DNA from: a virus
IMG/VR virus record: IMGVR_UViG_3300045988_131044
Span: 19,100 to 83,099 of that record
DNA length: 64,000 nucleotides
Strand: one strand, 5' to 3'
Position numbers and translations under genes: made by a program. Position 1 is the stretch's first letter, and each line of letters starts with the position of its first letter. Positions 19,082 to 63,978 of the stretch are shown piece after piece. Under the pieces are notes generated by a model. The model did no database searches, was not told where the DNA came from, and saw nothing but the letters and a program-made list of their open reading frames with translations.

Positions 19082-19735
19082 ATGTTGTCAATTATTGCTA
19101 TCTTGCAAACAAAAATCATGAGACGAAGATTTCAAATAGGGATGGGGGTAAATCCCTCGCTTATAATCAATAAAGGCATATACATCCAACATGTAGATGG
19201 AGGATTATATACAAAAGAAAATTGGTCTAATAAAGGATATTCCAATGATCTATGCAATGGAATAGCTCTTGTAGATAAAGTGTGTTTTGTTATAGCCACC
19301 GAATATATTGGCACATCTCGTTGGGGTAAGGATGGACAAATAGACAATATATTTGCACAAGATAGTTCTCATATTGGAACTATTAAAAAGGATTATTGGG
19401 GGCGTGAAAATCAGAATGCGTATCTTGAATATGATACCAGTAATACAGATTACGCTTTTAATAAAGCTAATAGCTATTTATTTAAGAATGGTCAAAATGG
19501 ATATGTAGGTGGCGCCGGAGAGTTTTTTTTGATATCATTGTATGCTAATGAAATAAACGAATGCCTTTTAATGGTAGGAGGTACGATAATGAGTAATAGA
19601 ATGTGGACATCCACTCGAAATGAAAAATCTACCTATTCGTGGTATTATGATATAAACATCCAAGGAGATCATTTGGATACAGGTTCAAGGGGTAGTTCAC
19701 GTTATGTCCGTCCTTTTACTGAATTAATTTTATGA
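19082..19735 (+). CDS. DUF1566 (Lcl C-terminal)-like domain protein, possible fibre/receptor-binding protein
   Basis: C-terminal MWTSTRNEKSTYSWYYDI...SRYVRPF resembles DUF1566; start uncertain (19082, 19118 or 19142). Confidence 0.45.
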   Translation: MLSIIAILQTKIMRRRFQIGMGVNPSLIINKGIYIQHVDGGLYTKENWSNKGYSNDLCNGIALVDKVCFVIATEYIGTSRWGKDGQIDNIFAQDSSHIGTIKKDYWGRENQNAYLEYDTSNTDYAFNKANSYLFKNGQNGYVGGAGEFFLISLYANEINECLLMVGGTIMSNRMWTSTRNEKSTYSWYYDINIQGDHLDTGSRGSSRYVRPFTELIL

Positions 19736-61834: not shown

Positions 61835-61862
61835 TTTCTTTCCTCCTTTGTTTTTAATGTTG

Positions 61863-61940
61863 TGTGAGATCGCCGGAATCGAACCGACCTGCTGCACCAT
61901 GAATCCCATAAAGCAAATGCTCCGATCTTCGCAGACGGGA
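61863..61940 (-). ncRNA. tRNA-like element B (T-arm GGTCGG-TTCGATT-CCGGC followed by GATCTCA-C)
   Basis: T-stem pairs with a G-U only on minus strand; acceptor-like 3' strand; 5' half does not give a clean cloverleaf by hand. Confidence 0.3.
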
Positions 61941-62068: not shown

Positions 62069-62178
62069 TATCTCCTCCTTTTTTTTATCTGTTCTTTTCA
62101 CGTTCCACAATAAACTGTTCCGGCTCTGCTCCGACCTACGCCCTACCTACAACCGCAGGCCTTAGCCCAAGGCGCCGC

Positions 62179-62439
62179 CTACTCCCCCTCTATGGCAGCC
62201 TGTTCGTACCTACAAATCCAATCTCCATCTACACAACTATCACTACGCGATAACAAACATTTATCCTCATAACAATCATAAAAAATACACCTATCACAAC
62301 TGTAATCCTTAACGTCTACACAACTAACTACCTTAGCATATACTATACCATCACTGCCTTTTATTCCTTTCACCCCAAAAATAGAACCTTCTCCCTCCTT
62401 ACTCAAATCTAAGTCAGGCGCAAAATCATATACGTTCAT
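62179..62439 (-). CDS. small Cys-rich protein (86 aa)
   Basis: ATG ORF; last gene before non-coding hub. Confidence 0.4.
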   Translation of the reverse strand: MNVYDFAPDLDLSKEGEGSIFGVKGIKGSDGIVYAKVVSCVDVKDYSCDRCIFYDCYEDKCLLSRSDSCVDGDWICRYEQAAIEGE

Positions 62440-62523
62440 GTTGTTTATGTTTTAATTGTTATACATTCCGCTTGAAAAAAAAATACTCACATAATGCAGT
62501 CTTTAACCCTTACCTACAGAATA

Positions 62524-62779
62524 CTGTTTTAAAAACGCTGTAAGTCTTAATTTTGTTGGAAAATCCTACATTGTGCTGTTTTAAAGCACTGCAATCCTTA
62601 ATTTTGTTGGAAAATCCTACATTGTGCTGTTTTAAAGCACTGCAATCCTTAATTTTGTTGGAAGAGACTACAAAATGCTGTTTTAAAGCTCTGCAATCCT
62701 TAATTTTGTTGGAAGAGACTACAAAATGCTGTTTTAAAGCTCTGATCTATTGAATTTTGTTGGAAGAGAGTGCCCTCCC
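62524..62779 (+). repeat. 5 tandem copies of a 51-bp direct repeat (two subtypes), each containing TAATTTTG; last copy degenerate
   Basis: units 62524, 62576, 62627, 62678, 62729; conserved ctgttttaaagc[at]ctgcaatccttaattttgttgga + variable 15 nt. Confidence 0.8.
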
Positions 62780-62960
62780 CCTCCCTCTCTCCAACTCCCG
62801 CTAATCCCCCGGCTTTCCGCATAGAACCCACGCCCTACCGCCTCACTACCGGCATACGGAGAGCGCTACAAGCTTATACTCTGGCATGAGGTGTGGGGTG
62901 TTTAGGGATAATATCATTCCATAGAGAGAATAGAGACCTTCAGCCCACGCCCTACCGTCT
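62767..62960 (+). other. GC-rich island in AT-rich genome: 40-nt polypyrimidine tract (G-runs on minus strand) and two copies of CCCACGCCCTACCG
   Basis: strong composition shift; motif at 62829 and 62944, related copy at 62127. Confidence 0.5.
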
Positions 62961-63489
62961 GCTCCTCCTATCAAAATAGATATTTAAACCTATAATCAAA
63001 GCCAATAAAGAAAAGCAAAAGACCATTACAATATTATACTGATCCGGTCCGTACTCCAACATAGAACGAATACCAACCGACAGAAAATACAAGTCAGCTA
63101 CTAATAAAAACCACCATATAAAATAAAAAAATACAATAAGTATGTCCGAAAATACGGGTATTATAAAACCTAACTAATTAATAATCAAGCATACCTCATT
63201 TTTGAGAAAAATACAATAAGCTTAATTTTCAATCCATAGAGACGAAAAAGGCGGCATCCGACACCCTATTTTGGGTCAGAAAACCGCCTAAAGTTTCGTT
63301 TTAAACCAATTTTAACGACATGATATAGACAAAATACCGGCATTATATCCAAACTATCATATTTTAGTTTCGTTTTAGACCAATATAGCTCACATCCGCC
63401 GTTCACTCTCAGAATATCCTACCCGTAAATAGAAAGAGTAGGATACAAAAATAGGGCTGCTCCGATATTCGGAACAACCCTACTCCTGT

Positions 63490-63912: not shown

Positions 63913-63978
63913 GAGGTTGCTCCGGAATCGAACCGGACGCGCATTCTTATCCTATAGAGATTTTATGCTACAACCAAC
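63913..63978 (-). ncRNA. tRNA-like element C (T-arm TCCGG-TTCGATT-CCGGA, 6-bp acceptor-like helix GGTTGT/GCAACC); only ~62 nt between acceptor strands
   Basis: perfect T-arm on minus strand; possibly a minihelix rather than a full tRNA; near window edge. Confidence 0.3.

Follow-up and report, generated by a model that had tools for sequence, protein, structure and literature searches.

A Copy-Number-Hypervariable Array of Helically Phased RTTGRA Hexamers at a Single Non-Coding Locus of an Epsilon crAss-like Phage and Its Close Relatives, a Candidate Protein-Binding Site

An array of hexamers, all in one orientation and on one face of the helix, was found at a single locus in the genome of an epsilon crAss-like phage; it is always retained among the close relatives and is highly polymorphic, and this is the statement best supported by the analysis. 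The window examined is a stretch of 64,000 nucleotides (positions 19,100 to 83,099 of IMG/VR record IMGVR_UViG_3300045988_131044). The array, its position, its variability, its invariant hexamer and its phasing were observed directly, and such a form would be expected of a platform bound cooperatively by protein. We infer, with a probability of only about 0.3, that this copy-number-hypervariable RTTGRA array is bound cooperatively by a protein and controls a leftward transcription unit. A regulatory role is preferred, closely rivaled by functions at an origin or a genome end.

Phage and Genome Map

The human gut harbors epsilon crAss-like phages in abundance; to our knowledge, none has ever been cultured. 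The window was found to be 88.6% identical to crAssE-Sib (OR575929, 151,256 bp, human gut), its sole match in the phage collection, which has been described as an epsilon crAss-like phage (PMC11054128). The genes of crAssE-Sib form three blocks, on the minus strand from 1 to 17.4 kb, on the plus strand (structural) from 17.4 to 110.8 kb and on the minus strand from 110.9 to 151.3 kb, and the array is found midway along the long minus-strand arm. The initial annotation had placed it in a gene-free hub; in fact, the array is not at a strand switch, the genes on either side being all on the minus strand, and a small minus-strand ORF (62952–63092), whose variation is concentrated by codon position as in a real gene, was found about 180 bp away. 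Neither a DNA polymerase nor the crAss transcription (virion RNAP) gene block is present in the epsilon group (Yutin et al. 2021, PMC7886860; PMC11054128), which has only a minimal replication gene set (PMC7886860, PMC11054128); without its own RNAP and DNAP gene blocks, the group must depend on the host's machinery acting at cis sites (PMC7886860).

The Array and Its Units

Tandem Repeats Finder (TRF) reported an array at 62514–62769 of the window, with a period of 51, 5.0 copies, 89% matches, 2% indels and a score of 310, and a separate repeat search placed the copy starts at 62514, 62566, 62617, 62668 and 62719. Its elements are the following:

62514–62565 (52 nt), 62566–62616, 62617–62667, 62668–62718 and 62719–62769, plus strand: the five units of the array (TRF, repeat search and sequence)
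62523, 62575–62585, 62626, 62677 and 62728, plus strand: conserved block A, (G)CTGTTTTAAA, one per 51-bp unit, with the extent given for the second copy
62548–62555, plus strand: TAATTTTG, a match to the -7 box, with further copies at 62599, 62650 and 62701; the corresponding site of unit five, at 62752, reads GAATTTTG
62555, 62606, 62657, 62708, 62749 (ATTGAA) and 62759, plus strand: starts of the six RTTGRA hexamers, from a motif count; the first, GTTGGA, occupies 62555–62560
62749–62764, plus strand: the best complete core, ATTGAA-TTTT-GTTGGA, two hexamers 10 bp apart

The array had been annotated at 62524–62779; this is the same real array with its register off by 10 bp. Its description as a perfect-phase 51-bp tandem does not hold, unit 1 being 52 nt long, and neither does the claim that two subtypes differ only in a 15-nt segment, since units 1 and 5 also deviate before the core (ACGCTGTAAGTC and GCTCTGATCTAT versus GCACTGCAATCC). 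The promoter-like motif ascribed to each unit is exact in four of the five, unit five carrying the variant listed above. Other statements were borne out: the minus strand of the array contains no TAnnTTTG, and downstream there is no plus-strand ORF bearing a coding signature, a 39-aa GTG ORF (62770–62889) being devoid of codon periodicity. A CRISPR array had been correctly rejected, the variable segments being about 15 nt long and of only two or three types, with no unique spacers of similar length. A 66-aa ORF crosses the array (62553–62753, plus strand) and stays open because 51 = 17 × 3; a protein-coding tandem repeat was rejected, as the frame is broken by the 50-, 31-, 40- and 21-bp units of relatives. 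In crAssE-Sib, a 40-aa 'hypothetical protein' (WOZ57410.1) is annotated inside the array at 150547–150669 of OR575929 (L001 7190–7312; window 62700–62831, minus strand) and is probably a spurious gene call. Neither the window nor the 151-kb relative was found to contain dispersed copies of the unit or core, and tRNA and Rfam searches around the locus returned nothing.

Variation of the Array among Relatives

About 90 related contigs, 86–96% identical over the aligned flanks, were collected by IMG/VR pattern and protein searches and by exact-protein look-ups. Each carried one array at a constant site and in a constant orientation (the same in 59 of 59 complete loci). The units were 21, 31, 40, 50–52 or 79 bp long, those of 50, 51 and 52 bp being present in 2 to 9 copies, and single arrays ranged from 1 to 10 cores and from 1 to 30 hexamers, a copy-number polymorphism among close relatives that is characteristic of VNTR or minisatellite loci. 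The array was never lost, at least one core being found in every relative, and the first and last units were stable orthologues across genomes. A logo of 182 cores from 57 unique arrays displayed the blocks CTGTTTTAAA (A) and T[T/G]AATTTTGT[T/G]GGAA (B) with a variable 6-nt spacer between them; old paralogous units have both blocks in common and differ in this spacer. Block A is missing from the short 21-bp units of relatives.

Contig ends fell at 10 of the first 23 arrays examined, which is the usual behavior of variable tandem repeats in short-read assemblies. Among 80 relatives, the commonest site of contig ends (about 21, versus about 12 at the 51-bp array) was a second long non-coding region outside the window, OR575929 (L002) 1577–2226, which holds a 31-bp × 3.6 tandem repeat (2066–2176) located 2.7 kb from the array, as well as G-rich and AT-rich blocks and inverted repeats.

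Conservation of the array was seen only among relatives of at least about 86% DNA identity. In five distant contigs reached via SSB homologues (35–78% identity), the sequence up to 10 kb from the SSB gene contained no analogous array, the record starts of phi14:2 and crAss001 had no comparable arrays, and a scan of genome contigs for paired cores gave 57 matches, all unrelated. Hexamer-run matches in two contigs (L285 and L277) were rejected as cross-clade conservation; both are unrelated AT-rich viral contigs, L285 encoding an Erv1/Alr-like protein. An invertible promoter was similarly rejected, there being no flanking inverted repeats and a single orientation in all 59 complete loci. In a 161-kb contig (L204, 66–5029), the encoded SSB shares 46% identity with its crAssE-Sib counterpart, and metabolic genes of bacterial type (NTP transferase, AP_endonuc_2/XylA2_C-domain protein, FGGY kinase and NUDIX) directly adjoin the phage replication module; this mix could reflect integration, the carriage of auxiliary genes or chimerism of the assembly. 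The array is not described in PMC11054128, in Yutin et al. 2021 (PMC7886860) or in the Crassvirales review, and a full-text literature search gave no description of it.

The RTTGRA Hexamer and Its Phasing

The element that is always reiterated in the relatives is the hexamer RTTGRA (GTTGAA or GTTGGA), on the plus strand only. The array of the window contains six copies on the plus strand and none on the minus strand, with spacings of 51, 51, 51, 41 and 10 bp; the background frequency is 1.77 per kb per strand. The module at 62749–62764 is the one multiplied in relatives as 21-bp units (basic unit GTTGAATTTTGTTGGAAGGGA), in which RTTGRA recurs at alternating 10- and 11-bp spacing; runs of 11 to 16 consecutive hexamers were found, and one array had 30. 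Nearly all spacings (10, 11, 21, 31, 41, 42, 51, 61, 92 and 102 bp) are near multiples of 10.2–10.5 bp, and arrays of mixed units hold one hexamer phase (R 0.97–0.99 at 10.2–10.5 bp). Several arrays carry a GGAA or GGGAA spacer in place of TTTT; in these the hexamer is kept and AATTTTG is gone. The 40- and 79-bp units fit whole helical turns poorly, and some units have a degenerate second hexamer (GCGGGA, GTAGGT). Since phasing is partly automatic in any tandem repeat and two unit lengths misfit, it is taken here as supportive, not decisive.

Surroundings of the Array

Read on the minus strand, the array (62769–62514) occupies an inter-cistronic or leader position in a short leftward unit that has strong hairpins as borders, local genes all being on this strand. 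The features met in this direction are:

63696–63490, minus strand: 68-aa gene, its product a basic protein
63445–63489, minus strand: 21-bp terminator-like hairpin right after the 68-aa gene (dG -32.1, z -7.5)
63407/63408, no strand: last and first bases of the crAssE-Sib record, whose genome start was set with PhageTerm, p = 1.5e-22 (PMC11054128)
63292–63310 and 63366–63384, plus strand: two 19-nt direct repeats AGTTTCGTTTTARACCAAT, 74 bp apart (family D7), 25–115 bp from the terminus
63245–63295, minus strand: strong terminator-like hairpin followed by a U-run (dG -26.5, z -4.9)
62952–63092, minus strand: small hydrophobic membrane-protein ORF upstream of the array, supported by codon-position variation
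62770–62815, plus strand: polypyrimidine tract (on the minus strand polypurine and G-run-rich, GGGAGGGGGAGGG), from the sequence and the relatives
62440–62513, minus strand: leader of 74 nt from the array to the ATG of the 86-aa ORF (about 43 nt in some relatives)
62179–62439, minus strand: 86-aa Cys-rich ORFan, the first gene downstream of the array

The PhageTerm start of crAssE-Sib maps about 640 bp to the right of the array, within the same non-coding region; the type of end (pac, cos or DTR) is not stated in the report (PMC11054128). The two terminator-like hairpins flank about 150 nt without coding periodicity, which may constitute either a short non-coding transcription unit or, at the genome end, a double terminator. 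The hairpin at 63295–63245 is followed by AT-rich sequence in which two 14-nt repeats and a sigma-70-like match occur. Among 51 unique relatives, the variation of the membrane-protein ORF is concentrated at third codon positions (7.97:0.46:3.18), as it is in a control gene (8.71:1.03:2.34). A 61-aa version is annotated in OR575929; its upstream ATG is ATA in the window, so the true start of this ORF is uncertain. Between it and the array lie about 180 bp of GC-rich non-coding DNA containing the polypurine tract (62815–62770), which is next to the array in each relative, differs in length because of CCCTCT-type repeats and may adopt a G-quadruplex or triplex structure. The 86-aa ORFan, for which no Pfam or PHROG match was found, belongs to a family of 516 clusters at 90% identity that appears to be fast-evolving, and on its 3' side are a 33-aa hydrophobic ORF and a further hairpin. 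Insertions in relatives (about 400 bp at ~61848–61852 and about 243 bp at 62088–62092) indicate that the early-gene region is mosaic. An identical 14-mer, CGGTTCGATTCCGG, occurs on the minus strand at 61873–61886 and 63922–63935, each copy about 25–35 nt upstream of a gene start; it folds as a tRNA T-arm-like hairpin, and neither copy was called a tRNA by ARAGORN or Rfam.

Weighing of the Explanations

In the preferred explanation, a putative sequence-specific DNA-binding protein, phage- or host-encoded, would bind cooperatively along one face of the helix, and the resulting complex would occupy the non-coding control region that precedes the minus-strand small-ORFan cluster, about 0.65–0.9 kb from the reported physical genome end, where its preferred role would be that of an operator or of an upstream control of the leftward transcription unit. 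This explanation is favored because a single array is found at the same site in about 90 contigs, with the unit nowhere else; because the hexamer core is always reiterated while unit architecture varies, and one phase is held across mixed unit types; because GGAA-spacer arrays keep the hexamer and lose AATTTTG; because paralogous units keep blocks A and B around a divergent 6-nt spacer; because the array stands 43–75 bp upstream of the ATG that opens a small, hairpin-bounded minus-strand unit; and because the epsilon group must act through host machinery at cis sites (PMC7886860). The TAATTTTG 'promoter box' would then be a by-product, made up of the end of a degenerate first hexamer, the TTTT spacer and the start of the following one. 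Against this, no protein neighboring the array matched a DNA-binding domain in Pfam or PHROG, the phasing is weakened by its partly automatic nature, by the 40- and 79-bp units and by degenerate second hexamers, in more distant epsilon-like contigs no similar array was seen up to 10 kb from the SSB gene, and unequal crossing-over (concerted evolution) could keep the units alike without selection. In CTXphi, ToxR binds TTTTGAT heptad repeats, variable from 3 to 8 copies, upstream of ctxAB. The likeness lies in short direct repeats of strain-variable number directly upstream of a phage-borne gene; the present array differs in having hexamers at a 10.5-bp period inside 51-bp units, and the regulator is known for CTXphi only.

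A functionless minisatellite, although not probable, is the most serious alternative. Repeats of GTTGAA...GTTGGA beside a slippage-prone polypyrimidine tract would seed duplications by slippage, unequal recombination would homogenize them and insertions would be tolerated. The wide variation of copy number and unit length among 86–96% identical genomes, the variable length of the neighboring C/T tract, the breaking of assemblies at the array (10 of 23 arrays at contig ends) and the similar GTTGAA microsatellites in the unrelated AT-rich contigs L277 and L285 agree with such an origin, and VNTR loci are likewise polymorphic in copy number and unit structure in close relatives and likewise break short-read assemblies. 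Unlike such loci, however, the array is retained by every relative with at least one core, its first and last units are orthologous across genomes, conserved blocks surround a divergent spacer, and core and hexamer phase are maintained across mixed unit types. Stacked host-type promoters, as suggested in the initial annotation, would fire rightward from -7 boxes (TAnnTTTG) to the genome end and yield a non-coding or antisense RNA, a transcript that would be antisense to the membrane-protein ORF at 62952–63092. Such promoters are clearly in use in the phage, its intergenic TAnnTTTG being strongly sense-biased (25 sense versus 5 antisense; 1.9 versus 0.4 per kb), and four units of the array carry the exact TAATTTTG on the plus strand, with a promoter-like spacing of block A to the core. 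Most intergenic sites of crAssE-Sib are TATnTTTG; 18 of the 25 sense sites lie in the plus-strand structural block and only 3 in the 40-kb right-hand minus arm starting at the array. The motif of the array is nevertheless unconserved: its first T is G (GAATTTTG) in 77 of 182 cores, leaving the motif in only 105, the arrays of 17 of the 59 complete loci have no exact TAnnTTTG, and some repeated units in relatives are devoid of AATTTTG. A Bacteroidota sigma-A promoter would have a conserved -7 box, a -33 TTTG and a context like that of the phage's own promoters with a gene or RNA downstream; here, no TTTG stands 19–21 nt upstream, where GCTG is found instead, the TTTT of block A lying 16 nt upstream. 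With a PWM trained on the 25 sense-strand intergenic sites against 131 coding-region occurrences, the four array sites scored -7.5 to -11.9, near the background mean of -10.8, whereas true sites scored +3.8 (sd 6.8) in leave-one-out. The upstream AT content was 62–65%, versus 76% at true sites, the motifs point away from every neighboring gene, and the 200 nt to the right of the array fold no better than shuffles on either strand and have no codon periodicity on the plus strand. Over the whole window, TAnnTTTG is not enriched (69 found versus 72.6 expected), and it is unremarkable that an ancestral unit should have had the motif once before being amplified. Promoter stacking was consequently judged quite unlikely, though not unreasonable given the use of TAnnTTTG by the phage elsewhere.

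A role as replication-origin iterons, also raised in the initial annotation, is unlikely, though a shade less so than promoter stacking. An initiator would bind the phased repeats and recruit the host replisome, which would be needed because the phage has no DNA polymerase of its own. Iterons and centromere-like arrays are known from the lambda ori, P1 oriR/incA, R1 parC (11-bp repeats) and F sopC (43 bp × 12). Like these, the array consists of direct repeats in one orientation (more than the three usually asked of iterons), non-coding, at a single locus, helically phased and variable in copy number, a form that fits a protein-binding array; additionally, it lies between two replication-gene modules on the circular map, in a group with a minimal replication set and no DNAP (PMC7886860, PMC11054128). 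An origin found no support, however, in skew or base composition. Cumulative GC skew turns only at switches of gene orientation (at about 20 kb in the window and at 17 and 110 kb in crAssE-Sib), with no inflection at the array; as skew is confounded with transcription direction, this weakens the origin without being decisive. The array is 63–72% AT and its right flank 37–43% AT, the richest 120-bp windows (about 80% AT) are elsewhere, and no unwinding element was seen. Unlike known iterons and centromeres, the array has no initiator or ParA/ParM/ParR-type neighbor: Pfam and PHROG searches of the neighbors gave no adjoining initiator gene, and no ParA/ParB or initiator-like neighbors were found. 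Its range of 1 to 30 hexamers among 86–96% identical genomes also far exceeds the usual variability of origins. A partition centromere of the parC or sopC type was rejected, no ParA/ParM ATPase or centromere-binding domain being found in the neighbors or in candidate ATPase proteins. A broader reading, in which array and polypurine/polypyrimidine tract would together form a cis-acting center where a nucleoprotein complex with a phage factor recruits the host replisome or marks the genome end, is improbable, if less so than an origin of the iteron kind. Least likely, yet still plausible, is the last suggestion of the initial annotation, packaging: a terminase or genome-end processing site whose repeats would be recognized by the small terminase subunit or by some other factor that acts on genome ends. 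In its favor, the genome start set for crAssE-Sib with PhageTerm lies 640 bp to the right in the same non-coding region, and phased repeats would suit wrapping around an oligomeric DNA-binding ring; but the array is far from the reported cut (640–890 bp), the putative terS and terL genes are about 20 kb away, and the terminus rests on the sole published call, its end type unstated. The two AGTTTCGTTTTARACCAAT repeats, 25–115 bp from the terminus, are, by their placement, better candidates for terminase recognition than the array. Block A (GTTTTAAA) has no significant link to these terminus-proximal repeats, this 8-mer being common. At the genome ends of the T7 group, the promoters A1–A3 and phiOL/phiOR and short repeats beside the terminal repeat are found, the outward promoter phiOR lying about 700 bp from the right end of T7. 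The array resembles them as non-coding repeats or control elements less than about 1 kb from an end and before early genes, and its elements, if promoters, would point outward like phiOR and unlike A1–A3; it differs in that its position relative to an end comes from one PhageTerm call in a relative, and in having no polymerase-specific promoter consensus.

Implications

The variability of the array accounts for assembly breaks in these genomes, and its copy-number polymorphism could be used to tell strains apart; were it a neutral minisatellite, it would be of technical interest only. If array and tract do form a cis-acting center, copy number would tune the efficiency of replication or packaging between strains. 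The array is a concrete candidate for a cis-acting site, in replication, early transcription or packaging, of a phage group reported to be without polymerases of its own.
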